A stretch of DNA of 64,000 nt from a virus, in IMG/VR virus record IMGVR_UViG_3300045988_116318, positions 84,184 to 148,183 of that record; one strand, given 5' to 3'. The position numbers and the translations under genes were made by a program. A model generated the notes under the pieces. The model saw only the letters and a program-made list of their open reading frames with translations, was not told the origin of the DNA and ran no database searches. Below are positions 655 to 50,155 of the stretch, piece after piece (the first letter of the stretch is position 1; every line of letters starts with the position of its first letter).

Positions 655-3600
655 CAATAATATAGATAGATATAATCCTGCTGCTAAAACCACTTACGAA
701 GATGTGGCAAGGCAAAGGAAATTAGCCGAAGAAGAGAATTACACTCCGGCTACATTACCAGAGACGACAACGCCTCTGGTTCCTAATTATATGCCTGGTG
801 AAGGTGTGTATGCCCAACCTAAATTTCCGGATTACGCATCAAGGATAGCTGCTGCCGAATACGAAGAACCGTATATAGCCAAGGAGATAAGCAACAGCTA
901 TTCGGAGGCACTGGCTCGTAACAGCTACAGGGGGGCTACACCTGCCCCGCCACCTCTTAATCCCTATGGACCGAAGGTAAGTATCCGTGAAAGTCATCAG
1001 ATGGGTAATGATGGGGTATGGCGTACAAAATATCCCAACTATATTCCGGGTATAAATAATGAGGATTATTATGCCAGAAGACAGAGCGGATGGAGTAAGT
1101 TTTGGAATGGTGTAGGCAAATTCGCTTTAAAGTCCGCATTGTACGGTGCTCAAGGAGTTGTGTCACTGCCTGACAAACTTATCAATATGGCATCTGAGGG
1201 AAGTTACAAAGCTGCGTTAAACACTAACATGGATAAGTTTGTAGGTGATCTTGACCAGCAAATAGACATGCTTCTTCCCCATTATTACAGGAAAGAGGTA
1301 GAAGATTATAATTTTGGTCAGAAGCTTTTTAAGGATACCGGTAATTTCTTGTGGAATGACGTCCTCGGTAATGGTATGTCTTTTACCGTAGGAGCCATGA
1401 TATCAGCGTACATGACCGGAGGACTTGGGGTTGGATCATTGGGCAATATAGGTGCTAAATTAGGTGGAAGAATCGGAGCTAAGTTGGCAGCAAGGCAAGC
1501 TGCCAATAGGGGCATAGGAAGCCTTAAAAGCGTGTTTAACGACTATGTAAGAAAAGGAGTTGCTACCGGGAGGAATGTAGGGGAGGCGGCTAAGACCATG
1601 ACGTTGTTGGCTACCAGTGCCGGATTCGAATCATCGGTTGAAGCAAATTCTTTTATGAAGCAATCCGAGTCTGATTTCAAGGATTATTATCGTAAGATTT
1701 ATGGTCGTGATCCCAATGCAGAGGAAATGGCTGTTTTTCGTAATTCTAATGCTGATGTAGGTAGTGCGATATTTGCTGCCAATATGGGTATAGTAGGATT
1801 ATCTAACTGGCTTCTTTTTGGCAAGTATATAGGTTTAGGAGGCAAGGCTATACCAGGGTTGGAAAAGAAACTTAATAAGCATCTATTTGGATTAGGGACG
1901 GAAGTCGCGAAGCCGGGAGAGATGGCTATTAAAATAACTAATCCCAATATAGGGCAGAAGATAGCTGGTAATGTTTTCAATATCATGAAAAGACCTGTGT
2001 CCGAAGGCTTATGGGAAGAAGGATCTCAAGGTGCTGTTCAGAATACGGCTGAGGAATATGTTAAGTCAAGATATGATAATGTAGCCATGAACGGAGCCGT
2101 TGATGTTCTTGATGCTATTTCTGAAGGATTTAAAAAGCAATATACGTCTAAAGAAGGATGGACTGAAATAGGAATCGGTGCTATTATCGGTTCTTTGTTT
2201 GGTATGAGGGAAGGCTTCTTTGGGGTGAAAGAGTATAGCAATAGTCAGATCTTGCTGGAAAGGCAAGTGAATGAATATAACAAAGCATCTTCTAATCTTA
2301 ACACGGCGGCTTTGAATACGTTGAAAAAATCAATGAGTTTAGGGCCTCAAGTTCGTTCCGATGCCCAGTCTATGACTGGTAAGGAGCTTGATGATGCTAT
2401 GTTTGAAAAGATGTCTATTGACAACCAAATGGGAACCTTAGAGGATTCGGCTGAAAATTTCCGGCAGATGATTGATATGATGCCTATTTCGGAAATAGCC
2501 GAAGCTAATGGAATGTCTTTGGAAGAGGCAAAGAAATACAAGGATTCTATTATTGATAATTATAACAATCGTCTTTCTGATTTCAGATCTGCCCAGAGTT
2601 TTGCTGAAGATCTTATAGGTGATGACTCTAAGATTGAGTTTAGGAAATACGTAGCTCGCAATGCTTTTCTTGGTCTTCAATCGGAATCAAGAATGAAAGA
2701 CATAGCTTCTGTCATAGAAACGCTTTCGGGGCAGCCTCGAGTGGCATATGCTCTAAGTACGTTCTCCCGGCTGTCGGACAGGGCAAGGGAGCGGGCTATG
2801 GCTATTCGTGGCATACGGTCAAGGATAGAAGAACTTGAATCCGAAATAGAAGATCTTGCCACCCGTCCTCGTAACGTAGATGGAAAAGACCCACAAGCTG
2901 AGTCCATACAACGAAAAACCAAAGAATTGGAAGATCTTAGAACCAATTACAATAATTCGTTGTCTGAGTTATCAACGTTAATAGGAAAAGAGTTTTCGAT
3001 AGAAGAGTTGGTAAGTAAAACCGAATCTGTTTTATCATCACCTCTTTCTCCTATAAGCTCACAAGATGTAATAGAGGCTTATGATACGCTCGTGGCTTTT
3101 GATGATTATTTCAATGTAAAATCAAGACAAGAAAAGAAGTTTACAGCCAAAGACAAAGCCATGAGATCCTTGGTAAATGAATACCGTAGGAGTTTGATGG
3201 ACTATAGGAATATGAATAATTTCTTGTCTAAGATGCTTGATAAAAGATTCTTAGCTGAGGAAAACAGGGGATTTTCAAAAGCGCTGTCTTCTCTATGGTC
3301 TACTCCTTATAAGGGGGATGACAAGGTTCCTGATTTTGCAGAGCCTAATAAAGTCGGTGAATATGACACTGATGAGGTAGTAGATCAAGCTGTGTCAGAA
3401 GGTAAGATTTCGGAAGACGAAGCTTGGACTATTAAAGCATTTATGCATGCTCTTGATAAAGTAAGAGAAGATAGGATGAAGGAAGCGGAAGATAATATAA
3501 AAGAGTCACCGCTTACGGAGTCTGTATCGGATGAAGATTATGAGGCTGCTATGGATAATCCTATTATGGTTCCGGCCGTAAGGCAGTCTATAATTGATAA

Positions 3601-6600
3601 ACTATATACAGGCAATGCTGATCTTCTTACTGCGAGAGAAAAAGATGTGTATGATAAATACAAACAAGATTTTGATGATTATGTATCATCTTTGGGTGAC
3701 AGTCCTGTTAATCTCATAAAATCATTATCTGAGAAGGCTGATAGGCTTACAAGTCCGAGATCTGTGTATGAGGATAATAAAGCTATTATTGATATGGCTA
3801 AATCCAATTTAGAACCAGATCAAAGGAAGGAACTTGATGATGCTATTTCTTCGTATGTTGATATAATGAACAGACGGGATAAAGGGGAGAAGGTTGACGA
3901 AGATAAGCTTGCCGATTCGGTATTTACCATAGAAGATCTTGGCCAGGTTGGAAACATCACAGATCTCCTTCCTTATGTTGAACAAAACAGGATTATTGAC
4001 AAAGGTCGTATCTCTGAATCTACGTTGAGTAATTTTGGGGAAGATGATGCTAATATAGATTCTCTTGTAAATGAGTTAGATGAATCCGATAATACGCCTG
4101 GAGCTAACATAGATAGCGCCCAGAATCCAGAGACGTTGATGGTTAGAAGAATATCCAACGATGGCAACGAAAGGTATGAAATTGCAGGTCTTAGAGCCGA
4201 TAAATTTATATCTTCTATAAAATCATTGGTTCCTATTCAAATAAGCTCTGAAACGAACGCTAATGGCACTAAAAGGTATTCTCTTAATATAGGTGGAGAA
4301 ACGGCTACTATAATTGAATTGCCTTATCATGCGAGATGGTCTATAGACAAAGAATCGGCTCGTGTTCTTAACCGTTACACAGACGTGTCTATTCAGGACG
4401 TGGGTAATTCCTATTCTTTGGTTTATAAGCGTCTTGATTCAGATGAATTGGTTCCGTACAGAACAGGTGTCGGATTCGGAGAGAATGAGGTAGATAAAAT
4501 AGATCAGGAAGCATTATCTTCTTTGAAAAAAGGAGATAAGGTTAATCTCGAAATAGATGTAAATGATACCTATAATCAGTCTCTTTTTGCCGAATACAAT
4601 GACGCTGTTCAGTCCGGCGATAAAAAAAGAATAGAATCTGCTGAGAATAAACTGGTATCCAATATGGTTATCAAGGTCATGAGTGGGAACAGATTCGTTT
4701 CTGTTGTAAAAGCTGATACAGGAGGCATAGATGGTATAAGTAAAATAAGAAGAACGGCTTTTAACAAGTGGAAGAAGGACGCCGGCCGGTCGGCTACCAT
4801 CGGCGTCGGCACGCATGTTGTTGCCCAGGCCCTTCCCGGAAGACCGGTGTTTAACATGAAGGTGAACGGTCAAGGATATGGCCAGGTAGAAAATCTCCCT
4901 ATTACCGAAAAAGGTGCTGAAAAAGTATCTGATGTGGGGTATGTATTAAATGGCAAAGTCGTGCTTAAGAACGGATCTAAATACACAGGATTCCCATTTG
5001 CTTATTCTATATTAAACGATAAGAAAAACAATTACAAAAATGTAAGAGTTCCGGTAGTCGTTATCAAGGGTAAGAATGGTCTTAATTATCTTTTCCCGGT
5101 TAGTCTACGTTCTGTGGAATCAGAGGAAGGAAAGAAATGGATTTCTTTTATAGATATGCTGCTTGAATCCGGTGACTCTGAATTGTTGCAGATGGGTCAA
5201 GATGACATACAAGATCTTAATGCGTATCTGACCAAGTTAGGTCTTGATCCAGCTTCGTATCAAGTATCGTATTTGAATCCTATTTCAGGTCTTAGAAAAG
5301 CTCGTGAGGCTATAGAAGAATTATCTACAGTTCCTGATGTTGTTAAGTGGGTAGAAGATGGAAGTAGGAGTGTGAAAGACATTGTGACGTCTGAAGTAGA
5401 ATCTGGAATAGATTTCGAAGGTGAGATGTTTGTTGCTCCTAAGATCAGGATTCAGTTTGGTAAATCATCTTCCAGACCTAAATCACTTATAGAAGATGAT
5501 CTCCCTTTCTCCGATGAGGGTAAGACCGTTACTTCCAAGGAAGATGTGGATATTTACGAAGAGGAAATGCCAGAGGAAGAGCCTGTCCAGGCGACTCAGC
5601 CGACGCCATCAACTCAGCCGGCTCCTGCGGCACAAGCTGCGCAGTCTTTACCTGGCAAGAAGCGTACCTCCAGGAAAAACTTCTCTCTTATGTTAAACGA
5701 AATAGAATCTCATATAGAAAAAGAAGGATTGCCGCCTTATGCTAATATTTTTGATTTTATAGCAAGGAAGATTGTAGGAGGCGATTTGAGGTTTCTTCGT
5801 GATAGAGGTAATCCTAAAAGCCTTAAGGAAGAAATGGGATTAGAACCTAAAGGAACAGTAGGTGATAAAATATCCACTCCTTCCAGTAAAGGTGGTAAGA
5901 CCTTAGAAGAATACGTTTCTTGGCTTCGTTCTCAAACAGATCAGGTGGTGGTTGATTATGTTGGGCCAAGATCTGACGAACAAATTATATCAGAGTTGAA
6001 AAACTTTTTGAAATATATTAATTTTGTTCCAAGCAAGGCTTTGAATTATTCTCTTAGAGTCAATGGCATGGATACCCTAAAAGAATATGGCACAAAAGAG
6101 GAAGTAGAAAAAATGGAATCTGATATCAATAGTTTGGTTTCTAAAGTTTTGCCTACGGTGGACAACCAAACTATAGAAGATGTTTCTACTGCAATAAAAT
6201 CAAACAACTTGCCTGCCATATGGGAGCCCGTGGAAAGCCTTGATATGACAAACGAGGAAAAAATAGAGTTTTTGAATAACGTAGCAGATTTCCTTAGCGG
6301 CATACCAGAGTATGATGCTGTCGTGGAGTCTATAGAGTCAGAATCAGATAATATTTTAAATGATGGAAAAGAAGGAAGTGCAGAAGGCGGTGCAGTACGC
6401 ACTGAGGAAGATGGCGATAAAAAGGGAGATGGAGAAGGCAAAGGACAATCCAGAACAAATGTCGAAGTTGAAGGAAATGTCGAATTACCTGGATCTACAA
6501 AAGGAGAAATAGGAAAAGACGAACCTCGTATATCCGAAGAACCGCTTACTTACATATCAAGGGTGACAACCCCTTATTTCCTGTACGGCGGTGATGAAGC

Positions 6601-6931
6601 ATATACATCTGTTCCGGCTAAGGTAGAACCTATACCGGAGAAGATAATGGGTCGTAATGGCATTAAATTTGGTATGAGTGTAGTCGAGTTAACCAAATTA
6701 GGGTACAAAAAAGCTGGTGGAAACTGGATATATAAATTCTATATGAACTCAGGTGTGTATGATTTGTATAATATAAGTTCCAGTGCATTCATCCGCTCTT
6801 TATCTCAATCTGGTAGAAAAATACAAAATATGATGAGTAATATGAGCCAGGAAGAGATAGATAGGAATAAGAATCTTGTAGAAGGTTCTGATAATTCGGA
6901 TTCGATAAATGAGTTAAATAAGGAGTGTTGA
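647..6931 (+). CDS. giant protein (2094 aa), putative virion/ejection-associated protein
   Basis: Uninterrupted 6.3-kb ORF. Gly-zipper hydrophobic stretch (GGLGVGSLGNIGAKLGGRIGAKLAA...GIVGLSNWLLFG). Long coiled-coil segments. Pro/Gln/Ala linker and Lys/Glu/Gly low-complexity tail. No catalytic motif recognised. Confidence 0.85.
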   Translation: MADNNIDRYNPAAKTTYEDVARQRKLAEEENYTPATLPETTTPLVPNYMPGEGVYAQPKFPDYASRIAAAEYEEPYIAKEISNSYSEALARNSYRGATPAPPPLNPYGPKVSIRESHQMGNDGVWRTKYPNYIPGINNEDYYARRQSGWSKFWNGVGKFALKSALYGAQGVVSLPDKLINMASEGSYKAALNTNMDKFVGDLDQQIDMLLPHYYRKEVEDYNFGQKLFKDTGNFLWNDVLGNGMSFTVGAMISAYMTGGLGVGSLGNIGAKLGGRIGAKLAARQAANRGIGSLKSVFNDYVRKGVATGRNVGEAAKTMTLLATSAGFESSVEANSFMKQSESDFKDYYRKIYGRDPNAEEMAVFRNSNADVGSAIFAANMGIVGLSNWLLFGKYIGLGGKAIPGLEKKLNKHLFGLGTEVAKPGEMAIKITNPNIGQKIAGNVFNIMKRPVSEGLWEEGSQGAVQNTAEEYVKSRYDNVAMNGAVDVLDAISEGFKKQYTSKEGWTEIGIGAIIGSLFGMREGFFGVKEYSNSQILLERQVNEYNKASSNLNTAALNTLKKSMSLGPQVRSDAQSMTGKELDDAMFEKMSIDNQMGTLEDSAENFRQMIDMMPISEIAEANGMSLEEAKKYKDSIIDNYNNRLSDFRSAQSFAEDLIGDDSKIEFRKYVARNAFLGLQSESRMKDIASVIETLSGQPRVAYALSTFSRLSDRARERAMAIRGIRSRIEELESEIEDLATRPRNVDGKDPQAESIQRKTKELEDLRTNYNNSLSELSTLIGKEFSIEELVSKTESVLSSPLSPISSQDVIEAYDTLVAFDDYFNVKSRQEKKFTAKDKAMRSLVNEYRRSLMDYRNMNNFLSKMLDKRFLAEENRGFSKALSSLWSTPYKGDDKVPDFAEPNKVGEYDTDEVVDQAVSEGKISEDEAWTIKAFMHALDKVREDRMKEAEDNIKESPLTESVSDEDYEAAMDNPIMVPAVRQSIIDKLYTGNADLLTAREKDVYDKYKQDFDDYVSSLGDSPVNLIKSLSEKADRLTSPRSVYEDNKAIIDMAKSNLEPDQRKELDDAISSYVDIMNRRDKGEKVDEDKLADSVFTIEDLGQVGNITDLLPYVEQNRIIDKGRISESTLSNFGEDDANIDSLVNELDESDNTPGANIDSAQNPETLMVRRISNDGNERYEIAGLRADKFISSIKSLVPIQISSETNANGTKRYSLNIGGETATIIELPYHARWSIDKESARVLNRYTDVSIQDVGNSYSLVYKRLDSDELVPYRTGVGFGENEVDKIDQEALSSLKKGDKVNLEIDVNDTYNQSLFAEYNDAVQSGDKKRIESAENKLVSNMVIKVMSGNRFVSVVKADTGGIDGISKIRRTAFNKWKKDAGRSATIGVGTHVVAQALPGRPVFNMKVNGQGYGQVENLPITEKGAEKVSDVGYVLNGKVVLKNGSKYTGFPFAYSILNDKKNNYKNVRVPVVVIKGKNGLNYLFPVSLRSVESEEGKKWISFIDMLLESGDSELLQMGQDDIQDLNAYLTKLGLDPASYQVSYLNPISGLRKAREAIEELSTVPDVVKWVEDGSRSVKDIVTSEVESGIDFEGEMFVAPKIRIQFGKSSSRPKSLIEDDLPFSDEGKTVTSKEDVDIYEEEMPEEEPVQATQPTPSTQPAPAAQAAQSLPGKKRTSRKNFSLMLNEIESHIEKEGLPPYANIFDFIARKIVGGDLRFLRDRGNPKSLKEEMGLEPKGTVGDKISTPSSKGGKTLEEYVSWLRSQTDQVVVDYVGPRSDEQIISELKNFLKYINFVPSKALNYSLRVNGMDTLKEYGTKEEVEKMESDINSLVSKVLPTVDNQTIEDVSTAIKSNNLPAIWEPVESLDMTNEEKIEFLNNVADFLSGIPEYDAVVESIESESDNILNDGKEGSAEGGAVRTEEDGDKKGDGEGKGQSRTNVEVEGNVELPGSTKGEIGKDEPRISEEPLTYISRVTTPYFLYGGDEAYTSVPAKVEPIPEKIMGRNGIKFGMSVVELTKLGYKKAGGNWIYKFYMNSGVYDLYNISSSAFIRSLSQSGRKIQNMMSNMSQEEIDRNKNLVEGSDNSDSINELNKEC

Positions 6932-16089: not shown

Positions 16090-19000
16090 ATGGTATCAAC
16101 GTGTATTATTAAAAGAGATAATAAAAAGAAAGTTGTTTCTGTCTCTACCAGATCAGGGGACAGGTCTATGTTGTTTGATAAAATAGCATCTGTTCCTCTT
16201 ATGGAGAACAGGGAGCGGGCTACTACTGTTTTTAAAACCGTATTTTCTAATAAGTTCTTAAAGGCTTTTGGTGACTGGAGAAGGAATGTGCCTATCAACA
16301 AACAGGCTTACAATAAGGTAAAATCCAATATCGACCTTATTCCGGAAGCCTATAGAGAAAGGGTGCTGGATAAGGCTTCTAAGATGAGCAACCCTATTCT
16401 TGTGTCGAAATCAGATGCACCTTATGGGATTCAAGAATCAGGCTTTGGATTCTATAGCCAGGATCTGGGTGATAATATTATGTTGGTGGATGCTATGGTT
16501 CCGTCAGGTATTTCCATACCGGAAGGACCGGGAATAGACGCCGGCCAGTATCTACAAGATGCTATATCTTCAGACTTCACTCCCGTATCTATGGTACAGG
16601 ATAAGGGTGTTAATTATATGGTTATAAAAGACGGTCTTAAGATATTTAGCCCAGAAGAGCTACCACAGACAGATTCTAATCCTGTGGGTGTAACGTATCA
16701 GACCGGAGAGCCTCGTTTGTTTTTCATGAACGATCGTAGTCAATTATTTGAAGATTACGGAGAAGCTCTTCGCTCTGGCGGAAATGATATTAGAATAGGA
16801 TTCTTATCAGGCACCGTTCAAGAATCTACCGTGGATGGTGTGGCAGACATTACTTACAAGGCTGGAAAGTATGTTCTTAATAATCCCAAATCTTTTATAC
16901 CGGTCATGACCGCTTCTGCTTCTACTTCTTTATCAACAAAAGGTGGTATAATTAACTACCTTATAAAGAAAGGTCTTTTGTCCGGATCTAAGATATTCGA
17001 TCCTGAAACAAGAAGCTATTATCTTACAGGAGAAGGTCATACAGGACAAATTAGACTTTTCAATTCAGCCTTATCCTACACCGAGCTCCGTAATCATTTT
17101 GGTTCAGATGTTTCCATGAACGACCAAGGTATGATAACCATAAGCTCGTTGGATAATAGTAAGGTAACTATGAGGCTCGCCACCGGAGGAACGGAAAGGG
17201 TTAGCAAAGAGCAGATAAAGAACGATCTTAAGTCAGGAAGATACAATGAATTGGACGCCAAGTACGATCATTTTGATGCGCTTGTAGTTTCATTCATATT
17301 AGAAGACAACGATCTTTATGCTGATACTAAAGCTAAGATCGTATCAGATTATAGCAGGCAGGAACGTGATCAACGAAATTCTATTGTCGAGATACTGAAA
17401 ACGCTTGGCGTTAGTGTCATAGGTATGACCGATTATATAGAGAAGTACCAAACCAAATACGGGCATGAACCTTCTGCTAAGGCATTGGCGGATATTGCCA
17501 ATAACGTAATAGCAGTTGGTGAAGATGCTACTTTATCTGATTTAGTAGAAGAAACATCCCACTTCCTTGTAGAGGCATACAGAGATCAGAATGCTGTTGA
17601 GGCTGTTCTGCAAGATGTAGAAGGTACGGAAGAGTGGAACCAGTATGCAGGTCAGTATTATAATACATACGGTAAGGTATATGAAGGATCCGAGCTTGAT
17701 AATGCTGTTAGGAGAGAAATTCTTGGAAAGATCCTTGCCAGGGAGATGCAGACCGGCACAGCACAGGCGCCGGTAGAGCCCACCTCCTTCCTGGGGCGCG
17801 TCCGGCAGCTTCTCTCTGGAATTGTAAACTGGCTTAAATCAGCTTTATCTACCCAAAGACAAGATTTGAATAATGTTATTAAAAACATTCGCGATCTTGC
17901 TATTACCGACATAGATAAAGGATTTGACACCTCTCTGTTAAAGGATAATGATTTTACATTATACTCTCTTTCTTCTATGAACAAGAACAAGTTTCTTGAG
18001 TCTAAGATCAGATCACTAAGAAAAACCTTAAGAGACTTACGTCAGATAAGCTCTGATAGGGCTGTAACTACGTCTATGACTCTTGCTCAGCTTAAGACCA
18101 TAGAAGATAAGATAAATAAGGTAGAGACCGAAATAGACAAGAATGAGATGGCGGCTGCCATGAACAGCATGATCTCCACAGCCGAAGCTCAGGTCAGATA
18201 CTTAAGTAATGTGGTAAACACCATCCTTCATGGTGATACCAAAGACGGTAAGCTTCACTTCAATACCAATGATCGAAAGAACGTAGATATTATCAACAAT
18301 CAGGTTCTTCCGATCATGAACGATCTTCGAGGATATATCCGTAACAGAAGTACCGAATTTGATGAGCGTGAAAAGCAGGATTATACAAATAGGATCAATA
18401 CCGTCATTGCCGACATCAACGGTATTCAGTCTGATATTAAATCAGTACAAGATCTTGATGAAAGTACGTTGCTTGACAAGTTAATGAACGAACTTCATGT
18501 GCCGGCAGATAAGGTAAAGAGAGTAAAAGAGTTCTTTGATAAGGTTCAACACGATGTTTCTTGGATAAGTAGGTGGTTCGGTATATTAGAGCATTCTTCC
18601 AGCCCGTTCAACAACGCTCTTGGAGCTATGATTGCCAAAGACAATTACAATGCGATGGTGAATGCCCAGCCCGCCATATCCGACTTCCTGGCATATGCGA
18701 AAAAGCATGGTTTCAATAAATCTGAATTTGAAAAACTGCTTCAGAAAGTAGACGGCAAAACTTCTAATTACCTTCGTAGTGCTCTTGATATGGCTAAATA
18801 CGATCGTAATAAGAAGCTGGCGCAGATGCGAGCGTTTGCGACCGCCATGAACATAGAGATATCAGAAGAAGAAATCAATGATGTGGTTGACAATAACCGT
18901 AATTACGTATTTAAAAGAGAAGTAGTTGACAAGGACGGAAATACGGTTACTGAGAACGCTAAATTTAAACCGTCGTCCGATAGGGTTAATACCGATATTT

Positions 19001-22000
19001 TTACTATCGAACAGGAAAAAATCTATACGGAACAGATGGAAAAATGGGATGCTGAAAATTCGGAACTGGAATTTAGCGAAAGTTATGCCACAAGAATGGA
19101 ATCCATATACAAAAAGGCTGAAGAAGAATTAGGGCATCCGGTTTCTCAAACAACCAAAGAATACCTTAATGCTCTTTCTCGGCAGAAGCGGATATTGAGG
19201 CAGCCTTTTATTGATAGCAATGGTAATTTTGATGAGGTTGCTTACTATAAGAGTAGTAACTACGAAGAAGAAGGACTGCTTCGTAAACAACGTAAGGAAG
19301 CAGCTTCAGAATACATATATGTAGGAACCAGGAGAGTGGAAAAAACTGGCGACCAACTTAAGATGGCCAAAGAAATACAAGCCATAAATGAAGTTTGGAG
19401 AAAAGAATCAAATAATGCCACTAATGCCGTATCAGAATCGTTTTTGCAAAAATTAAGAACGATTCAGAACGAGTCAGGAGGAGAAGCTGCGTTGAAGACA
19501 CTTATGTTGGGAGGGCACCTGTCATTTAACGATCGGTTTTGGAATGACATAGAATCAGAACAGTCGGCACGTACCGAATCAAATAACAAGGCTTCGTATC
19601 TTAAAATGGCACAAGACATCATTAGTTCTACGACAAGTGATAGAGATGCGACTGACGTGGATTCGATTGTAAAAGATATAGAAAAAAATAAGGCTATTAT
19701 CAAGGAAATAATCAGCAACAACCGTGACGTGGCTGATATCGGAGAAATCAATGAAGCAACATTTACCTCATCTGAAAGAGATGCTTTTAGGGCCGCATCT
19801 GAAGCTATTGAAGCCGATTACGCTATTTTGATAGATTATGCTAAGATGGTGGGTCTTGAAGATATTGATAAGTACCTTACTAAAAGCAGTAAGGCTGAAA
19901 ACGAAGTAAATCAGTCTTATTTAAATGCTCTTGCTGACTCCAAGGAAGTGGAATGGAAGTTCGTACAACGTCATACTACGGCGAAGAAAGCAAAAAGGAT
20001 TCAGGCTTTAAGGGATAAGCTGTTTAAGGCTGCTGATAACCGATATCTGTTTACCGTATCTGAAACCAACTACCTGTCAGAAAAGCTTGGAATAAGCAAA
20101 GAATTAGACGGTAGATATTTCAGGAATGCTGTTAATACTAAGATGGCCAGCTTATTTTTAAATAATACAAGAGAAGAGGGTATAGAAGCTGACATAAAAG
20201 CAGGTATAGAAGAAGCTAATGCGATCGTTAATGAATTTGCCAGGAGCCAGGTCTTTTCGTACTATAAACGCATGGCACCTACCGGATATGCGGCTATGAT
20301 TGGTAAAATAGGCCGCGGTGAGATAGATGTGGCGCAGATGGTTAAAGACGTACAGAACGGAACATCCACCCAAGATTATGGCATGGACATATCATACCTG
20401 TCTTTCGACCCTGCAAGGGCATGGGTGGCTGAATCTGAAGCCGAAAATAGCGGTCGTAACCCTGATTATGTAAAAGATCATGGGTATGGTCATCGTATGC
20501 CCAAGAAAAGCCTGTATCGTGATGAATCGTATTTCAATGACTTTGGTATCAAGTATGATGCTGACGGTAATGAGGTTGCTACTAAAAACGTAGAGCAATG
20601 GAATATGATTCAAAAACTTAAGGAAATAAAAAGACAATCCCTTTCCTTATACAAAGAGCAGAGCCCGAACCTGTATGCTATTCCACAGATATCCAAACAA
20701 GATATAGAACGTGTGGAAGGATTGGGTATCAGCCTTAAAAGTACGGTCAGGAACTTCGTATCCGACTTATGTCTTGATCGCGTAGATGACTCCCTGTATG
20801 GTAAAACACGCCAGGGTGAGGTATATGATCCGGAAGATAGGGTTCGGTCCATACCTAAATACTACATATATGAATTAGAGAACCAAGATGACGTATCTCA
20901 TGATTTTGGTTACTCTTATTCGATGCTTATGATGCAGTCATCGTTATACAACGAAAAGCAGAAGTCTATAGAGCTCGCTCAAGGACTGGAGCAGATGTTA
21001 CTGAATAAACAATTTGAAGGTGGTAAAAAGGCTGAAGCAACCCAAGCATATCAGATGTTCAGGGACTTCTTCAACGATCATTATTATGGCATTAGGATGA
21101 ACACCAAAAAACTTACGGTGAACATCGGAGGATATACGGTAGACCTTACAAGAATTATGATGGCTGTTGAAAGATTTATGTCGGTCATGAACTTGGCACT
21201 GTCTCCGTTTGTGGCAGCTACCGGCGCCTTAACAGGTCATATCAACCTCATCATGGAATCTGCCGTAGGACAGTATATAAGCAAAGACTCCCTTAAATAC
21301 GCATCGGCTGAATTTTCACGCCTTGCTCCATCTTGTATAGCAGAAACCGGAGACATAGATAGGAAAAGCAAATTATATGTCATAGGTGAGAGAATGGGGA
21401 TATTCAATATCCGAAATCGTATGTATGGTGCCGGATACAATAGAGTGGCCAGGACCTTAATGCGTTCGCCTATGTATGCTTTTATGGAAATCCTGAACTA
21501 CCCTCTTGATCCGCAGGTTATGATTGCTACTATGGACAATGTTCGTTATTACAAAGGTCGGTTCTACACGTTCCAAGATTTCAAGATGGAAAAAGAACGT
21601 AATAAAGAACAGAGTACCATAAAAAGAGAATGGAATGCATTAAAAGATCGTACTTTATGGAGTATGGTAGATGTCGTGGATGGGAAGGTGGTTGTAAAGC
21701 CCGGATCAGGTGTTACTGTTGAGGAAGTTGAAACCCAGATGGCTATAACCAGAAATCAAGTTCGTAGCTTGTCGCAGATATGTAACGGATCTTTGAATGA
21801 AGAAAACCGAACTGCCGCATCGCGCAACTGGATAGCCAGGTTCATGACCGCCCACCGAGGATGGTTGGTGCTGGCGGCTCAACGTCTGTGGAAAAGACGT
21901 GGCTTCAATTTCCAGACAATGCAAGAAGAGGAAGGGTTGTCAATTACGTTAAAGAATATGATAGCCAAAACATTTAGCTTAGCTTCCGAGTCTGGTATGA

Positions 22001-22536
22001 AAAACATCATAGATGCCTGGAACGAAAATAAAGACAATATGAATGAGGTAGAGAAAACCAATCTCAAACGTCTCAGTGTCTATGCCGGCACGTTCCTTAT
22101 CATGCAGGCCGTATCTATGCTTCTTGCCGGATGGCGTGATGATGATGAAAACGAAGAAAGTTGGCTTACTCAATTTGGATCCTATGTCGGATTCAGAACC
22201 ATAAACGAAATAGCTTCACAGATGCCGTTTATTATGGAGCTTAACGTGGTAGATATCATTAACGATCCGTTCGTCATGGGACGGAAGCTGAAGGATCTTA
22301 CCGATCTTAGGAATTATTCACTTGATAAAGTAACATCCGGTACATACAAGGGAGAGTCTAAGTTATTTAGGCAACTCGCCAAACAGACGTTTATCAAACA
22401 ATGGTATAATATCAAGACGCCGGAAGACGTAGCGCGCGCCTATAATTGGTGGCAGCAGACGAACAACAAGTCAATGATGTTCTTCATCGGCGCCACTCCT
22501 GATTCGGAAGGAGACGATGATGTTAGCTACAAATAG
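16090..22536 (+). CDS. giant protein (2148 aa), putative virion/ejected protein
   Basis: Uninterrupted 6.4-kb ORF. Coiled-coil rich middle. Hydrophobic segments near C-terminus (LSVYAGTFLIMQAVSMLLAGW). No RNA polymerase DxDGD-type motif found by eye. Confidence 0.85.
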   Translation: MVSTCIIKRDNKKKVVSVSTRSGDRSMLFDKIASVPLMENRERATTVFKTVFSNKFLKAFGDWRRNVPINKQAYNKVKSNIDLIPEAYRERVLDKASKMSNPILVSKSDAPYGIQESGFGFYSQDLGDNIMLVDAMVPSGISIPEGPGIDAGQYLQDAISSDFTPVSMVQDKGVNYMVIKDGLKIFSPEELPQTDSNPVGVTYQTGEPRLFFMNDRSQLFEDYGEALRSGGNDIRIGFLSGTVQESTVDGVADITYKAGKYVLNNPKSFIPVMTASASTSLSTKGGIINYLIKKGLLSGSKIFDPETRSYYLTGEGHTGQIRLFNSALSYTELRNHFGSDVSMNDQGMITISSLDNSKVTMRLATGGTERVSKEQIKNDLKSGRYNELDAKYDHFDALVVSFILEDNDLYADTKAKIVSDYSRQERDQRNSIVEILKTLGVSVIGMTDYIEKYQTKYGHEPSAKALADIANNVIAVGEDATLSDLVEETSHFLVEAYRDQNAVEAVLQDVEGTEEWNQYAGQYYNTYGKVYEGSELDNAVRREILGKILAREMQTGTAQAPVEPTSFLGRVRQLLSGIVNWLKSALSTQRQDLNNVIKNIRDLAITDIDKGFDTSLLKDNDFTLYSLSSMNKNKFLESKIRSLRKTLRDLRQISSDRAVTTSMTLAQLKTIEDKINKVETEIDKNEMAAAMNSMISTAEAQVRYLSNVVNTILHGDTKDGKLHFNTNDRKNVDIINNQVLPIMNDLRGYIRNRSTEFDEREKQDYTNRINTVIADINGIQSDIKSVQDLDESTLLDKLMNELHVPADKVKRVKEFFDKVQHDVSWISRWFGILEHSSSPFNNALGAMIAKDNYNAMVNAQPAISDFLAYAKKHGFNKSEFEKLLQKVDGKTSNYLRSALDMAKYDRNKKLAQMRAFATAMNIEISEEEINDVVDNNRNYVFKREVVDKDGNTVTENAKFKPSSDRVNTDIFTIEQEKIYTEQMEKWDAENSELEFSESYATRMESIYKKAEEELGHPVSQTTKEYLNALSRQKRILRQPFIDSNGNFDEVAYYKSSNYEEEGLLRKQRKEAASEYIYVGTRRVEKTGDQLKMAKEIQAINEVWRKESNNATNAVSESFLQKLRTIQNESGGEAALKTLMLGGHLSFNDRFWNDIESEQSARTESNNKASYLKMAQDIISSTTSDRDATDVDSIVKDIEKNKAIIKEIISNNRDVADIGEINEATFTSSERDAFRAASEAIEADYAILIDYAKMVGLEDIDKYLTKSSKAENEVNQSYLNALADSKEVEWKFVQRHTTAKKAKRIQALRDKLFKAADNRYLFTVSETNYLSEKLGISKELDGRYFRNAVNTKMASLFLNNTREEGIEADIKAGIEEANAIVNEFARSQVFSYYKRMAPTGYAAMIGKIGRGEIDVAQMVKDVQNGTSTQDYGMDISYLSFDPARAWVAESEAENSGRNPDYVKDHGYGHRMPKKSLYRDESYFNDFGIKYDADGNEVATKNVEQWNMIQKLKEIKRQSLSLYKEQSPNLYAIPQISKQDIERVEGLGISLKSTVRNFVSDLCLDRVDDSLYGKTRQGEVYDPEDRVRSIPKYYIYELENQDDVSHDFGYSYSMLMMQSSLYNEKQKSIELAQGLEQMLLNKQFEGGKKAEATQAYQMFRDFFNDHYYGIRMNTKKLTVNIGGYTVDLTRIMMAVERFMSVMNLALSPFVAATGALTGHINLIMESAVGQYISKDSLKYASAEFSRLAPSCIAETGDIDRKSKLYVIGERMGIFNIRNRMYGAGYNRVARTLMRSPMYAFMEILNYPLDPQVMIATMDNVRYYKGRFYTFQDFKMEKERNKEQSTIKREWNALKDRTLWSMVDVVDGKVVVKPGSGVTVEEVETQMAITRNQVRSLSQICNGSLNEENRTAASRNWIARFMTAHRGWLVLAAQRLWKRRGFNFQTMQEEEGLSITLKNMIAKTFSLASESGMKNIIDAWNENKDNMNEVEKTNLKRLSVYAGTFLIMQAVSMLLAGWRDDDENEESWLTQFGSYVGFRTINEIASQMPFIMELNVVDIINDPFVMGRKLKDLTDLRNYSLDKVTSGTYKGESKLFRQLAKQTFIKQWYNIKTPEDVARAYNWWQQTNNKSMMFFIGATPDSEGDDDVSYK

Positions 22537-46543: not shown

Positions 46544-46643
46544 CTCACCTTTAATTAATTAGACACAAATATACAAGTTTTACTAAGATGCCCTTCTGTC
46601 ATCTCTTCGACATACTCCCACACCTAAAGTTCGCGGTAGTATG

Positions 46644-46997
46644 TCAATCTATTGATTTCTTCCCAATCTTTTTAATCTTTGTTGGTCTTGACAATCGATA
46701 ATCCTTTTCTATCGGCCTATCGAATACGTCATTCCTATATCCTTTATATCCTTTCTCGTAAATACTAACCCTTGCACAAAACTCAACCACATCGCCTGGT
46801 AATAAATCGGCGCTTTCGAATCCTTTTGTCAAATCAAACCACAAATGATCTGTTACTATTTTACCATCGAGTAACACGTCTTGTAAAAGTATTGTCTTTA
46901 CAGGTCCTTTATACCCATCCCTGAATCCAAAACGAATGAATGTCGCTGTAAATACGTGCCGATCTCTTGATCCTATTATTTTCAGTTCTTTTCTCAT
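46644..46997 (-). CDS. hypothetical protein (117 aa), third gene of ATPase cassette
   Basis: Start 7 nt after the ATPase stop. Confidence 0.55.
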   Translation of the reverse strand: MRKELKIIGSRDRHVFTATFIRFGFRDGYKGPVKTILLQDVLLDGKIVTDHLWFDLTKGFESADLLPGDVVEFCARVSIYEKGYKGYRNDVFDRPIEKDYRLSRPTKIKKIGKKSID

Positions 46998-47003
46998 CCT
47001 CTT

Positions 47004-47810
47004 TCATTTATTTGTTTCACTTATAAAATTGGTAATATCCTTTAGATACCCTTCTGTCATCTCTATGAAATTCACACAATCTAATTTACTTAATTTGTAA
47101 ATCAATACCGGATTGTGTACTATGGCTATAATTTGTGTTTGTGGTTTATGGAATGACAATACATTATAAATTTGCATTATGTTATCAATATCAAGATTCC
47201 TATCTGGCTCATCCATGAGAACCGTGTATTCAAAACTGCTTTCTGTTAATGTTATGCGGTTTCTTTCATAATACTTCAACAGGTTATCAATTCTTTTAAT
47301 CCAAAACGCATTTGATTTTTTCTTGTATTCTACAAGATCTTGTATTGGAAATACATAATCCTTTTGACCGAACATTAAATTGAAAAGTGATTCCAATGAT
47401 AACACCACTTTCTCTCCATAAGATCTTCGAATATTATTCACATACAAATCTAAGTTGCTGATGTTTTTCAATACGCTATCTCGATTCATCTCCGCCGATG
47501 GCAATAAACGGAATACTTTCCCTGCATAATCGGATGATATGTCAATCCCATCAAGAACCTTGTCATCATCATCAAATATGGGTGGAAAATCCAGTGCCTC
47601 GATCGGTATTTCAGAACACATGGATTTCTCACATAACGCATACATTGATATGATGTTAAGCAAGGTTGATTTTCCACTACCGTTTTTACCTATAATTACA
47701 TTCACTCCTGGCTTGAAAATAAATTCTCTGCCATTTTCAAATGCTTCTATATTAGAAACGTATTCAAATGGAGTTTTTGTATTGTCTTTTATTTTTACCG
47801 ATGTTATCAT
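47004..47810 (-). CDS. ABC/SMC-like (AAA_21-type) ATPase (268 aa)
   Basis: Walker A GKNGSGKST, signature-like RSYGEKVVLSL, Walker B/D-loop TVLMDEPDRNLD, H-loop AIVHNP. Confidence 0.7.
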   Translation of the reverse strand: MITSVKIKDNTKTPFEYVSNIEAFENGREFIFKPGVNVIIGKNGSGKSTLLNIISMYALCEKSMCSEIPIEALDFPPIFDDDDKVLDGIDISSDYAGKVFRLLPSAEMNRDSVLKNISNLDLYVNNIRRSYGEKVVLSLESLFNLMFGQKDYVFPIQDLVEYKKKSNAFWIKRIDNLLKYYERNRITLTESSFEYTVLMDEPDRNLDIDNIMQIYNVLSFHKPQTQIIAIVHNPVLIYKLSKLDCVNFIEMTEGYLKDITNFISETNK

Positions 47811-47822
47811 ATGTAATCCTTT

Positions 47823-48659
47823 TTAAAAATCAATTACCGCCCGAACCCTGCTACTGTTGTACTTGTCACTGTAGTACGCGCTACCAATGGAGAAGTCCAC
47901 GTACCACGCGACGCTCGGGCTGCTCTCGGTACTGGATCTATACCACGTCGAGGAGAGGGGAGATGCCGAAACATAAGCGAATGCTTTGTTTAGTTCGTCC
48001 ATATAATGGGCCATTAAATTTAATTGACCAAGAGATGGTATATACTCGCCATCTTTCAGCAAATTTTTCAACTTTGGATTTCTGGCTACAAGGCGTTCCG
48101 TATTGCCGCGTCCATCAATATCAAACAGCGCATCACATTTACGTTCGTAATATGTCTCACTTCCGGATTCTTTACGGCTATCATTGTCAAGCAACCGTAC
48201 ACTATCATGCTCCTCCAGCGAGATAGCAAACGATACGTCTTTGTGTTTTAATCCGATATAACGCACATTCTCTTTAATATTCTCTCCAGTAAACGGCTCA
48301 GCGTGTCCGTTTCCGTAGATTAGATACAAACCATCTTTTCTTGATGGTACTCTATTTTCACATACGCATCTTTCATTTTTTGGTCTTACAATTATGTTCA
48401 ACTCATTCAACACATGATCTTTTATGACTTCCTTGCTTATTCTTTCTACAAAACCATAATTCCTTTGTTTAAGCTCATCATTTACCATACATCTGATCCA
48501 ATTTTCTATCTGATTGTTTCCTCCGTATGTATTATGCATGCACCTTTTTACAAGCTTTTCCAATAATGGTTCTATGTTTTTGATTATATCTTCTTTGGTA
48601 AGGTGAAGTTCATTTAGTATGCAATTTCTTACCGCCTTGTATTCTTTACTTGTGCTCAT
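47823..48659 (-). CDS. hypothetical protein with DUF1566 (Lcl C-terminal)-like domain (278 aa)
   Basis: C-terminal WYRSSTESSPSVAWYVDFSIGSAYYSDKYNSSRVRAVIDF resembles the yWSST...aW.v.f..G....K....VRcVr motif. Confidence 0.5.
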   Translation of the reverse strand: MSTSKEYKAVRNCILNELHLTKEDIIKNIEPLLEKLVKRCMHNTYGGNNQIENWIRCMVNDELKQRNYGFVERISKEVIKDHVLNELNIIVRPKNERCVCENRVPSRKDGLYLIYGNGHAEPFTGENIKENVRYIGLKHKDVSFAISLEEHDSVRLLDNDSRKESGSETYYERKCDALFDIDGRGNTERLVARNPKLKNLLKDGEYIPSLGQLNLMAHYMDELNKAFAYVSASPLSSTWYRSSTESSPSVAWYVDFSIGSAYYSDKYNSSRVRAVIDF

Positions 48660-48811: not shown

Positions 48812-49474
48812 TCATTTCAGTTCTTTAATTAAAGCATCCGCATATATTACAGCTAATTCAGCCGCCTTATCACACGTCTCCAATATTAATTCACCGTGAG
48901 GTCCACGCCCTGATACGGATGTGATCGGAAGCATGGTTTTTGCCATCTCGTATCTACGTTGTTCCCAATCTACATGGGTGTTACACGGTTCTTGATTGAC
49001 CTGTATATATCTTCCTTCAATATTAGAAGATCTTAATGTTTCCGCATTCTCTTCGCCGAATGCAACCAGAATAGACCCACATCCTGGACTTTCACCTATT
49101 GTTCCATCTTCTCTGTGGAATTTTATCCTTCCTTTCATGAACAATATACCTTTTGCTTTCGGGAATACAACATTCTGAAACATCTTATTGTCAAGACGAT
49201 TAAAAAGAAGAGCTATTCCATTATTGTGCTCTACCATACGAGTAATAAAATGCTCTATAGTCGGTCTTGAATAAGGTGGGTTTAACCATACCCTTCCTTC
49301 CCATTTTTGTTTTAATCCATCTTGCTCTTTGTTATACATAACCCTGGCTGTCCTCCATAACGGACGCATAGGCGCACATGGATCTAAATCAAATTCCCCT
49401 AAAGCGTCTATAATTTCTTTAGGTGTGTACCATTCATCTGTACTGTTTTTAGATTTCTCAAATGATGTATTCAT
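48812..49474 (-). CDS. dam: DNA N6-adenine methyltransferase, phage Dam-type (220 aa)
   Basis: N-terminal DEWYTPKEIIDALGEFDLDPCA and catalytic WLNPPYS (NPPY motif IV). Confidence 0.75.
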   Translation of the reverse strand: MNTSFEKSKNSTDEWYTPKEIIDALGEFDLDPCAPMRPLWRTARVMYNKEQDGLKQKWEGRVWLNPPYSRPTIEHFITRMVEHNNGIALLFNRLDNKMFQNVVFPKAKGILFMKGRIKFHREDGTIGESPGCGSILVAFGEENAETLRSSNIEGRYIQVNQEPCNTHVDWEQRRYEMAKTMLPITSVSGRGPHGELILETCDKAAELAVIYADALIKELK

Positions 49475-49492: not shown

Positions 49493-50155
49493 TTAATCCC
49501 ATCCTCCAGTAGTGTACAAAGATACATCTTCCTCCTCTACATTTACACCTTTAAGAGCCTGTAGAAGTTTTTTCTTTGTCTCCCTACACATATTGTAACC
49601 ATACCCCTTATACTTATATGACCTTTCCCATGTACTTACCGGAAAAGGGATATTCTCGTCAATAACCAGCCTCTTCATATGAAGATGTTCGAAGAATTTC
49701 TCATGGTATAGAAGTTTATACTCGTATCCTACTATATCAGTAAATGAGAATGGAAAATAATCATCTTCTTTTTCTTCGTATTTAGGCTCCTTATAGTAAG
49801 CCATTTTTGTCACAGTAAAATCGAAGCTCCTAAGAATCTCTTCTGGCTTTCCAAACTCTGACTCTATGAACTCTATCCATACCTTTTCTCCCTCTTTCTG
49901 GAACGCACATACCTTCTCATTTCTGTACTTAAATTTCCATCCTTCTTTCTGATGTTTTTCATCATTGAACAAATCAATAGCTTCCTGAAAATCGCTTTCA
50001 CTTTCAAAGAAAATATCAATATCTTTTACTTTTTCTCCGGAAAGGATATTCTTAAAACATCCACCAGCTATGAATCCTTTGTGGCCTTCCATATACTTGT
50101 CAAGCCATCTTATTTGCCAGAAATTATCTGGAGTATCTATTACAAAATTGTTCAT
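49493..50155 (-). CDS. Pol-beta-superfamily nucleotidyltransferase, CCA-adding/poly(A)-polymerase head-domain-like (220 aa)
   Basis: IAGGCFKNILSGEKVKDIDIFF matches GGxVRDxLLGxxxxDxDi. LRSFDFTVTKMAY matches RRDFTINAm. Confidence 0.55.
   Translation of the reverse strand: MNNFVIDTPDNFWQIRWLDKYMEGHKGFIAGGCFKNILSGEKVKDIDIFFESESDFQEAIDLFNDEKHQKEGWKFKYRNEKVCAFQKEGEKVWIEFIESEFGKPEEILRSFDFTVTKMAYYKEPKYEEKEDDYFPFSFTDIVGYEYKLLYHEKFFEHLHMKRLVIDENIPFPVSTWERSYKYKGYGYNMCRETKKKLLQALKGVNVEEEDVSLYTTGGWD

Follow-up and report, generated by a model that had tools for sequence, protein, structure and literature searches.

Do three genes packed closely on one strand of a phage genome constitute a single functional system? 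The question is raised by a block from an epsilon crAss-like gut phage, in which the genes for a 278-aa protein (p278), an ABC/SMC-type ATPase (p268) and a 117-aa protein (p117) follow one another on the minus strand of the window, i.e. the entire 64-kb stretch of DNA analysed here. Crassvirales rank among the most abundant viruses of the human gut, and no function is known for the majority of their early genes. A preliminary description had read the block as a three-gene cassette of the PARIS, Septu or Gabija kind. The features considered below are as follows:

47823..48659, minus strand: p278, ORF of 278 aa
47837..47955, minus strand: DGR-type variable repeat (VR) at the 3' end of p278, aligning to the L166 template repeat
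~47837-47849: invariant GC-rich segment closing the VR, AGGGTTCGGGCGG, common to the template repeat
47004..47810, minus strand: ATPase p268, ORF of 268 aa
47664-47690, minus strand: Walker A
47409-47423, minus strand: signature SYGEK
47190-47225, minus strand: Walker B/D-loop, TVLMDEPDRNLD
47115-47117, minus strand: H-loop, His232
46995..47006, minus strand: junction TGA-AAG-AGG-ATG, with the ATPase stop and, two codons on, the p117 start in one frame
46644..46997, minus strand: p117, ORF of 117 aa
46544..46643, minus strand: 100-nt intergenic spacer ending the block
46566-46573: TAnnTTTG motif within this spacer, 23 nt upstream of the ATG of the next gene

Layout of the locus

The initial description of the three minus-strand ORFs and of the ATPase motifs is confirmed, and the coordinates bear out the 12-nt gap between p278 and the ATPase; the gap between the ATPase and p117 measures 6 nt rather than the 7 nt originally given. 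Database searches recovered hundreds of homologues of each gene, and their dN/dS stays under 1 throughout, apart from the p278 variable repeat; hence, they are real genes. The block is flanked by the two largest intergenic gaps of its neighborhood (152 and 100 nt). We take the TAnnTTTG motif in the latter to be a putative Bacteroidota-type -7 box; a sigma-70 scan, a terminator scan and the full Bacteroides promoter pattern showed no enrichment.

Conservation and genomic context

The proposed cassette does not survive a comparison across relatives, as the trio is not conserved together: among 86 loci retrieved via the p278 repeat, the ATPase is adjacent in 71 and missing in 15, the latter lying beyond the close clade, where the ATPase homologues in turn occur without p278. 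Such homologues, with 52-70% identity, are found in other phages and prophages among unrelated neighbors. Nor can p117 be counted as a conserved member: it follows the ATPase in 19 of the 66 assessable loci, being missing in ~70% of close relatives, most of which keep the ATPase without it, and its divergent homologues are found without any ATPase.

The early-region setting, on the other hand, stands: the block lies in a variable early/accessory region, also beside replication genes, where relatives carry known anti-defence genes. In the sister clade, Tad3 (117 bits) is directly upstream of a fused ATPase-p117 gene; elsewhere, genes for NAMPT and an AAA_33 protein lie behind the ATPase (L227) or PNK3P upstream of it (L226), and Dam is a presence/absence gene adjoining the block. 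Pfam searches with 10 further neighboring ORFs returned DUF4494 only. Anti-defence genes have been reported to cluster in such hot spots (bioRxiv 10.64898/2026.06.04.730250). The present region resembles these loci with Tad2, Tad3 or Acb4 in its variable early position, its presence/absence genes and the occurrence of the relatives' ATPase beside Tad3, NAMPT and Dam; it differs in that the ATPase and p117 match no known anti-defence family. Searches for a characterized homologue of either protein found none. Given the Tad3, NAMPT and Dam genes in the same region of relatives, a role of the region in phage-host conflict appears plausible.

p278, a predicted DGR target

p278 displays a two-part architecture. 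Its N-terminal domain of ~95 aa has a stand-alone 98-aa homologue in the sister clade (L222, 49% identity), and its C-terminal domain (~aa 143-278) is of the lectin-like Lcl_C/DUF1566 type, with a match to PHROG 4245 over aa 143-276. The Pfam Lcl_C match in the window copy (aa 233-275) is sub-threshold at 22.8 bits against a cut-off of 34.9, but the Lcl_C/DUF1566 match is recorded for many close homologues, and it is above threshold (36.9 bits) in a related 1132-aa DGR target encoded by the locus L166. No database match of p278 exceeds 91% identity, and hundreds of clusters fall at 82-90%. The gene is situated among early, non-structural genes.

The VR at the 3' end of the Lcl_C/DUF1566 domain has a GC content of 58%, as against 37% for the remainder of the gene, and a dN/dS of 1.56 against 0.26. 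Only codon positions 1-2 vary, each such site showing 3-4 bases, in an NNC/AAC pattern at template adenines. Codon by codon, the VR can be aligned to the template repeat (TR) of the L166 DGR, a cassette comprising an RVT_1 reverse transcriptase (RT) and the above-mentioned 1132-aa Lcl_C target, which was retrieved with a collection pattern built on the invariant VR columns (an earlier pattern demanding A at every hypervariable site found no sequences). When the window-clade alleles are compared to this TR, 29 of 36 adenine columns are variable as opposed to 21 of 83 others (p=4e-8). The window VR itself mismatches the TR at 13/36 adenines and 8/83 other bases; the latter eight imply that it was not templated by the exact L166 repeat. 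For comparison, the mismatches of L166's own repeats number 14/36 at adenines with 0/83 elsewhere, and 10/36 with 1/83. Following AGGGTTCGGGCGG, the L166 template and its repeats have TGGCAGCAT, in place of which the window clade has TAATTGATT in the putative IMH region; the window-clade homology to the template ends 9 nt short of the bona fide repeats.

Neither a cognate template repeat nor its RT was found in the 64-kb window or in csAssE-Sib, the closest complete genome, the template repeat having been sought by blastn, a repeat search and a scan with the invariant columns plus adenines; likewise, no template repeat was found in the clade's contigs from IMG/VR and JGI metagenomes. The A-rich L166-type template was present in only three IMG/VR and three metagenome contigs, with window-type context in none of them. 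csAssE-Sib has an annotated DGR of its own, which was rejected as the source of the p278 template as its template repeat fails to align with the p278 VR; its RT shows 32% identity to that of L166 across just 53 aa.

DUF1566 is a recognized class of DGR targets (PMC5758913). p278 shares with the DUF1566/CLec2 targets (category 'd', Wu et al. 2018, e.g. Legionella LdtA) the C-terminal position of the domain, a VR at the extreme 3' end, variation concentrated at template adenines and a GC-rich conserved 3' segment common to the template; it departs from them in the missing cognate template and RT and in the eight non-adenine mismatches to the nearest known template. Thus, p278 is a hypervariable lectin-like protein unrelated to the ATPase/p117 pair and, by its repeat, a DGR target, which assigns it to a different system from the cassette in which it had been placed. 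The last ~40 codons of its binding domain have most probably been diversified by adenine-specific mutagenic retrohoming. As a matching template and RT occur in mosaic relatives but are absent from the window and the closest complete genome, the repeat is most likely a relic, and less likely a target served in trans.

A head-only ABC ATPase

p268 shows the Walker A, signature, Walker B with the catalytic Glu, D-loop and H-loop of the ABC/SMC-type ATPase superfamily together with an ABC-type fold. Across 28 family members with 49-92% identity, Walker A G41/N43/G44/G46/K47/T49, the signature S130-x-G132-E133, the combined Walker B and D-loop D200-E-P-D-R-N-L-D207 and H232 are all invariant. Pfam searches recovered AAA_21 (40.1 bits) and AAA_23 (37.9 bits), both with a cut-off of 27, and SMC_N at 39.0 bits, just below its cut-off of 40. 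In line with its preliminary description, the protein is not RecF or RecN proper: NCBIfam recF scored 24.9 bits where its cut-off is 172, and Rad50 scored 26 bits where 700 would be required. The family has 684 database matches, its longer members showed no informative extra Pfam domains, and the dN/dS of the ATPase is 0.18; a scan of bacterial genomes was swamped by matches to the generic Walker A pattern. By its motifs, p268 is accordingly classifiable as a stand-alone minimal, head-only ABC ATPase with intact catalytic motifs.

The known systems closest to it are PtuA of Septu, the PtuA-like ATPases of the retrons Ec83/Eco7, AriA of PARIS and the N-terminal domains of OLD/GajA. The best PADLOC matches on the ATPase are mainly to the N-terminal P-loop region, about aa 18-70: those to AriA cover aa 33-62 and 36-71 only, falling short of a full-length match, and those to GajA are confined within aa 18-96. 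AriA has been reported as an ABC ATPase of 53 kDa (PMC10802454), as compared to the 268 aa of the window ATPase. The suggested PARIS/Septu/Gabija-like module finds no partner domain of these systems in Pfam or PADLOC searches: neither neighbor of the ATPase matches the PARIS partner AriB (TOPRIM/DUF4435), no PtuB-like HNH nuclease is present at the block, and, with regard to Gabija, the ATPase has no fused TOPRIM or other extra domain and no helicase is encoded among the genes adjoining the block. PADLOC returned no matches for p278 or p117.

A large OB-fold family

For p117, fold searches by two methods recovered only OB folds, with modest scores, and the protein is accordingly predicted to adopt a five-stranded beta-barrel like solved OB domains. 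This result, along with the lack of a nuclease domain, goes against the nuclease or effector fold that had been considered for it. p117 is basic (pI 9.6) and aromatic-rich; the invariant residues of the family include many aromatic and basic ones, and it has its own invariant motifs, DHLWF and YEKGYKG. The family comprises 2245 cluster representatives, without annotation in any of the libraries searched; it is mostly found without the ATPase, and in some members an S1 or HTH domain is joined to it. Divergent homologues adjoin dGTP diphosphohydrolase-like, DHH or TnpB genes with no ATPase near. The proximity to IS605 TnpB (L097-100, L002) is most likely coincidental, given that TnpB is common in these phages. 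The predicted fold, basic charge and aromatic richness recall nucleic-acid binders of the SSB/PriB/RPA type, although p117 has no sequence similarity to any of these and the fold scores are modest. We infer from the OB fold that p117 would bind single-stranded nucleic acids. Constraint on the gene is relaxed, with a dN/dS of 0.48 (pS 0.018).

The ATPase-p117 junction

The in-frame arrangement of the ATPase stop and the p117 start recurs in all 42 p117-bearing loci. In two cases (P0002 and P0010) a TGA-to-Arg codon change fuses the two proteins; these fusions of the window clade are singletons. The sister clade shows a distinct arrangement, in which p117 lies in the -1 frame directly past an A6 run that is followed by a stop; here a change of the run from A6 to A7 has generated a fusion (P0035) that is seen on 14 contigs and has 101 member sequences. 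p117 carries lesions in 8 of the 42 loci; nonsense alleles occur in L006, L008 and L068, and in L019 (ATA) and L080 (ACG) its start codon is lost in an otherwise intact gene. The ATPase and p117 genes are direct neighbors in two clades and lie near each other in a third. Between the two clades, the flanking core genes are 35-43% identical, as compared to 69% for the ATPase and 79% for p117. A 330-aa gene intervenes between the pair in one locus (L226), which, together with the p117 homologues without an ATPase, implies that the adjacency could in part reflect positional synteny. The small proteins encoded behind distant ATPase homologues show no remote relationship to p117, the hhalign probabilities being below 1% in 3/3 comparisons. 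Taken together, the link between the ATPase and p117 is real but loose.

Interpretation and alternatives

The best explanation, to which we assign a probability of roughly 0.6, is that there is no three-gene system but a packed accessory stretch, with p278 as a DGR target and the ATPase and p117 as a loose module with a role in conflict. ABC-family ATPases close into an ATP-sandwich dimer, and by this established mechanism the ATPase would do likewise. p117 is encoded for translation directly behind it and in some phages is fused to its C-terminus; when present, it would tether the ATPase to single-stranded DNA or RNA. The genomic context points to an accessory role for the ATPase in phage-host conflict, i.e. 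counter-defence or exclusion, rather than in core replication.

A somewhat unlikely alternative is that the ATPase and p117 are functionally independent, with p117 merely tending to occupy this position and the fusions being neutral or defective accidents of stop mutation or homopolymer slippage. The gene separating the two in L226, the ATPase-less neighborhoods of the divergent p117 homologues, the frequent loss and damage of p117 and the unrelated small proteins behind distant ATPases all agree with this proposal, and the window-clade fusions, being singletons, could be neutral. However, a defective product would hardly account for the number of contigs and sequences that carry the A7 fusion, the pair has diverged far less from one clade to the other than the genes around it, and there are two distinct junction architectures, each a single mutational step from fusion.

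Alternatively, the pair might serve the phage replication module by mediating DNA repair or recombination in the manner of RecF-RecO, in which a head-only SMC-like ATPase works with an OB-fold protein and undergoes ATP-dependent dimerization on DNA at single-strand gaps. The likeness is one of analogy, in that a minimal ABC/SMC head lacking any coiled coil lies beside an OB-fold protein near replication genes; the window pair has no detectable sequence membership in that system, as indicated by the recF and Rad50 scores, and no RecR-like component. We consider this reading unlikely, since p117 is dispensable and the ATPase is patchy among unrelated phages, with accessory or anti-defence genes at its flanks and no fixed recombination partner.

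Quite doubtful is a more elaborate reading, whereby the ATPase and p117 would form an undescribed module, namely an ATP-gated clamp on single-stranded nucleic acid, swapped as a unit between epsilon crAss-like clades and switching between split and fused forms via a leaky or mutable TGA or an A6/A7 slippery run. The task of such a module would lie in counter-defence, where it could, for example, mask or remodel nucleic-acid cues sensed by host PtuA- or AriA-type ABC-ATPases. Separately, p278 might be a DGR target that persists in a genome lacking its own template and is diversified in trans by L166-type cassettes of co-infecting relatives.

Programmed recoding, with TGA readthrough in the window clade and a -1 frameshift or transcriptional slippage on A6 in the sister clade, would yield both the 268-aa ATPase and an ATPase-OB fusion of ~388 aa from a single message. 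Candidate recoding sequences are AAA-TGA-AAG-AGG-ATG and AATAAAAAATAAG. The invariant in-frame position of p117 behind the TGA, the two loci with an intact but start-less p117 and the fact that a -1 shift at the A6 run predicts precisely the sequence IRKEM found in the fusion are all compatible with this mechanism. Nevertheless, we regard it as highly improbable: no stimulatory structure was identified, the start-less loci may represent decay of p117 akin to the nonsense alleles, and ordinary translational coupling also explains the close spacing. Moreover, TGA is a normal stop in the window phage, terminating 34 of 89 ORFs. The last observation also argues against a genome-wide reassignment of TGA (code 4 or 25), which was rejected; among the internal stops of p117 alleles, moreover, one is TAG and not TGA.

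Finally, a single PARIS/Septu/Gabija-kind cassette for defence, exclusion or anti-defence, in which the ATPase would do the sensing, p117 would be the effector and p278 would confer specificity or act as an accessory subunit, is scarcely credible in view of the trio's dissolution outside close relatives, the OB fold of a p117 that is absent or broken in most of them, the PADLOC results and the membership of p278 in a DGR.

Implications

These results define a phage-borne family of head-only ABC ATPases and a large unannotated OB-fold family, between which the natural ATPase-p117 fusions offer a testable physical link. Both the ATPase and p117 lend themselves well to anti-defence screens, given that the same site in relatives houses proven Thoeris inhibitors and genes of NAD salvage. 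More generally, the locus cautions that tight gene packing in phage accessory regions does not count as evidence of a functional cassette. With p278, epsilon crAss-like genomes gain a second DGR-type repeat, hitherto unreported, which seems to have become separated from its template; it is of relevance to the question of how DGR targets are maintained and spread once the retroelement is gone.

Layout of the locus

The three genes under study are adjacent ORFs on the minus strand:

47823-48659, minus strand: p278
47004-47810, minus strand: ATPase (p268)
46644-46997, minus strand: p117

Spacers of 12 nt (p278-ATPase) and 6 nt (ATPase-p117) separate them, and the gaps of 152 nt and 100 nt at the block edges are the biggest intergenic ones in the neighborhood. 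The next gene beyond the block codes for 104 aa, and 23 nt 5' of its ATG is a TAnnTTTG motif (46566-46573) that we take to be a -7 promoter box of the Bacteroidota type. Such a putative promoter would fit a Bacteroidota host and the start of a new transcription unit at this point. TGA terminates 34 of the 89 window ORFs and is thus a normal stop, indicating the standard genetic code. The GC skew flips sign at ~22.5 kb of the window, the junction between plus-strand structural and minus-strand early genes; two giant plus-strand structural ORFs are present (647-6931 and 16090-22536; 2094 and 2148 aa). The phage csAssE-Sib (OR575929, 151 kb, human gut) is 91% identical to the window and has been published as the epsilon crAss-like phage CrAssE-Sib, in a paper with no mention of the ATPase, p278 or the p278 repeat (PMC11054128).

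Conservation of the three genes

Close relatives of the ATPase number 327 in IMG/VR, and in the 80 loci fetched p278 is nearly always found upstream, as expected of phages that are ~95% identical, while p117 is present in only about half; in csAssE-Sib p117 is missing, and an additional ORF of 73 aa separates p278 from the ATPase. A cleaner estimate, free of selection for the ATPase, comes from 116 loci collected by the p278 repeat pattern, 86 of them assessable: the ATPase adjoins p278 in 71, and the 15 without it hold more divergent p278 homologs (56-75% identity). Of the 66 cases in this sample that could be assessed for p117, 19 have it after the ATPase. ATPase homologs at 52-70% identity are found in very different phages and prophages, e.g. 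a temperate siphovirus-like element with an SSB and an antirepressor, a prophage region with an HTH/M78 repressor, and larger phages, and never with p278 in the loci examined. Thus, with p278 loci lacking the ATPase and ATPase homologs lacking p278, the trio is not conserved together, and the preliminary description of a single three-gene cassette is not supported.

p278 as a target of a diversity-generating retroelement

Whereas the closest database matches of the ATPase and p117 are 98-99% identical, that of p278 is only 91% identical, and the protein forms hundreds of distinct clusters at 82-90% identity. Its Lcl_C match (Pfam, aa 233-275) is below threshold at 22.8 bits; DUF1566-type domains are a recognized class of diversity-generating retroelement (DGR) targets (PMC5758913). 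Amino-acid variability is highest in the final 40 residues. In the corresponding 3' stretch of the gene, the third codon position is fixed, but the first and second include sites with 3-4 different bases; the stretch has a GC content of 58% (gene, 37%) and is closed by an invariant AGGGTTCGGGCGG. The dN/dS is 1.56 in the repeat and 0.26 in the remainder of the gene. The first 95 residues (listed as window 47823-48375) are 49% identical to a stand-alone 98-aa protein of a sister clade (L222 2820-3116); since this N-terminal domain also stands alone, p278 looks, by sequence, like a small phage protein joined to a DGR lectin-type module.

Scanning the collection with the invariant columns of the p278 repeat recovered the contig L166 (IMGVR_UViG_3300029849_000070), with three copies of this repeat type. 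In one of them all 36 variable-type columns are adenine (AAC AAC AAC AAC...), and the gene for an RVT_1 reverse transcriptase (RT) follows closely downstream, which identifies this copy as the template repeat. The other two, at the ends of a 1132-aa Lcl_C protein and of a p278 homolog, are variable repeats, differing from the template at 10-14 adenines and 0-1 other bases. The complete cassette is:

L166 8103-10270: RVT_1 RT, A-rich template, 154-aa ORF between them, and 1132-aa Lcl_C target

The second target, the p278 homolog, is ~9 kb from this cassette and is followed by PcfK/PcfJ-like genes, not the ATPase. Among window-clade p278 alleles, columns that are adenine in the L166 template are variable in 29 of 36 cases vs 21 of 83 for the others (odds ratio 12, p=4e-8).

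No cognate p278 template is found in the 64-kb window, in csAssE-Sib, or in the window-type contigs of IMG/VR or JGI metagenomes. Cassettes of the L166 type also occur in contigs L139, L167 and L229, but are rare: three IMG/VR and three metagenome contigs carry the cassette or template, and all six are of the L166 type. The DGR annotated in csAssE-Sib (OR575929.1 45751-47816, L101), with a tail-fibre/RBP target, was rejected as the source of the p278 template as the templates are unrelated. Its RT shows only 32% identity over 53 aa to that of L166; thus, epsilon crAss-like phages have hosted at least two distinct DGR lineages.

Our conclusion is that p278 is the target of a DGR not itself present here. 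The window repeat shows 8 non-adenine mismatches to the L166 template, and its homology ends 9 nt sooner than in bona fide repeats. Diversification in trans is the less likely explanation. Most likely, the repeat was diversified in the past and is now a relic, which recombination has spread; L166 and csAssE-Sib share segments at 90-97% identity.

The ATPase and its proposed facultative partner

The ORFs and ATPase motifs initially described are confirmed. The ATPase passes the Pfam cut-offs for AAA_21 and AAA_23 and falls slightly under that for SMC_N, while NCBIfam places it in no curated family. Among 28 relatives, which reach down to 49% identity, there is no variation in the Walker A, the S-x-G-E signature, the DEPDRNLD Walker B/D-loop or the H-loop His. 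As judged from sequence, the ABC catalytic motifs are intact, and the dN/dS of the ATPase, 0.18, indicates purifying selection. Searches with the sequence against solved structures match in the motif regions only; in these matches the ABC-F protein EttA shows a similar Walker B/D-loop (DEPTNHLD). The best stretches of the PADLOC matches (mad3, AriA, HEC-01A, PtuA, GajA) are likewise mainly in the N-terminal P-loop region. Since it has no partner of the nuclease, TOPRIM, HNH or helicase kind, the ATPase does not qualify as a member of PARIS, Septu or Gabija. Several truncated forms of 158-219 aa (proteins P0032, P0096, P0099, P0110, P0112) are each represented by tens of member sequences; they may be artefacts of contig edges or reflect repeated disruption of the ATPase in natural populations.

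p117 has no match in Pfam, PHROGs, PADLOC or NCBIfam, and its predicted OB fold is neither a nuclease nor a toxin fold, contrary to an effector role. It is basic (pI 9.6), with many aromatic or basic invariant residues (F16, F20, H51, W53, F60, F73, Y80, Y84, R2, R13, K58, R76, K82). A profile search gives a family of 2245 cluster representatives, in which most members stand alone, at 110-160 aa, and some carry a fused S1 or HTH domain. Divergent homologs occur next to dGTP-diphosphohydrolase-like and DHH genes (L092), among small genes (L094), or, in one lineage, divergently oriented from IS605 OrfB/TnpB across a 54-nt gap (L097-L100, 2678-4366), with no ATPase near any of them. The TnpB neighborhood is probably coincidental, since TnpB is common in these phages; a broken TnpB and a Y1 TnpA also lie downstream of p117 in L002 (3688-5295). 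In the 145-kb phage of L092, a helicase gene (1-1894) carries an insertion of the Hom_end_hint type (intein/homing endonuclease).

p117 occurs naturally fused to the C-terminus of the ATPase. In all 42 p117-bearing loci of the window clade the TGA stop of the ATPase is in frame with p117 (AAA TGA AAG AGG ATG), and in proteins P0002 and P0010 Arg replaces this stop, giving fusions of 388-390 aa. In the sister clade (L002/L222; ATPase 69%, p117 79% identical to the window's), p117 is in the -1 frame after AATAAAAAATAA, and one additional A yields a 391-aa fusion in 14 contigs from different samples (101 member sequences vs 2560 for the split form). As identity between these clades is only 35-43% in the flanking core genes, the pair was either exchanged as a unit or is far more constrained. 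A third clade (L226; ATPase 63%, p117 87%) has a 330-aa inserted gene between the two.

An obligate partnership is nevertheless counted against by several observations. p117 is missing from ~70% of close relatives, and 8 of the 42 window-clade copies have lesions, namely nonsense codons (L006, L008, L068), truncations (L005, L020, L048) or a lost start codon (L019, L080). Its dN/dS of 0.48 and very low synonymous diversity (pS 0.018 vs 0.09-0.23 in neighboring genes) suggest a recent arrival under relaxed constraint, and the small proteins downstream of distant ATPase homologs are unrelated to it. We therefore read the association as real but facultative, with p117 as an adaptor that the ATPase can have in cis or in trans, or do without.

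Genomic context and proposed role

Several genes in the neighborhood of the pair or its homologs may point to phage-host conflict:

Window 48812-49474: Dam-type N6-adenine methyltransferase (PHROG 111)
Window 49493-50155: nucleotidyltransferase (PHROG 4400; polyA polymerase/CCA-adding enzyme in the csAssE-Sib annotation)
L222 4963-5736 (also L223-L225): Tad3 locus, with only a 79-aa DUF2400 fragment between Tad3 and the fused gene
L092 7077-7301: Tad8 homolog, ~3 kb from the p117 homolog
L227 5902-8312: ATPase homolog (63% identity), with NAMPT/NAPRTase and AAA_33 genes directly behind it

Tad3 and Tad8 are inhibitors of type I and type II Thoeris, respectively. In the sister clade, the Tad3 homolog (PF25185, 117 bits, cut-off 27) lies closely 5' of the ATPase-p117 fusion and holds the place that p278 has in the window; Tad3 acts as a ThsB-binding inhibitor (PMC13402655). 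The NAMPT and AAA_33 genes look, from sequence, like a counter-defence NAD+ salvage pair, L226 has a PNK3P in position around the ATPase, and the window nucleotidyltransferase may be related to tRNA repair. Dam shows presence/absence polymorphism in close relatives, many of which have a full-length 145-aa ORF instead, like csAssE-Sib.

With these genes nearby, and given that anti-defence genes reportedly cluster in such hot spots (bioRxiv 10.64898/2026.06.04.730250), we tentatively favor a conflict role for the ATPase on genomic context, at a probability of roughly 40%. Its position upstream of DUF4494 and replication genes is the same in at least three epsilon-crAss-like clades, and a RecF/RecO-like repair role for the ATPase and p117 appears less likely. 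By analogy with the established mechanism of ABC ATPases, ATP would drive head-to-head dimerization. The fold, charge and domain fusions of p117 lead to the prediction that it binds single-stranded nucleic acid and, when present, would bring the ATPase to it.

Each part falls into a known superfamily (ABC ATPase, OB fold, DGR lectin-type target), but the ATPase and p117 families are both uncharacterized, and no described system has their split/fused pairing. Unlike the three-gene cassette, the ATPase-OB pair is a modestly interesting lead, as is p278 as an orphan DGR target.
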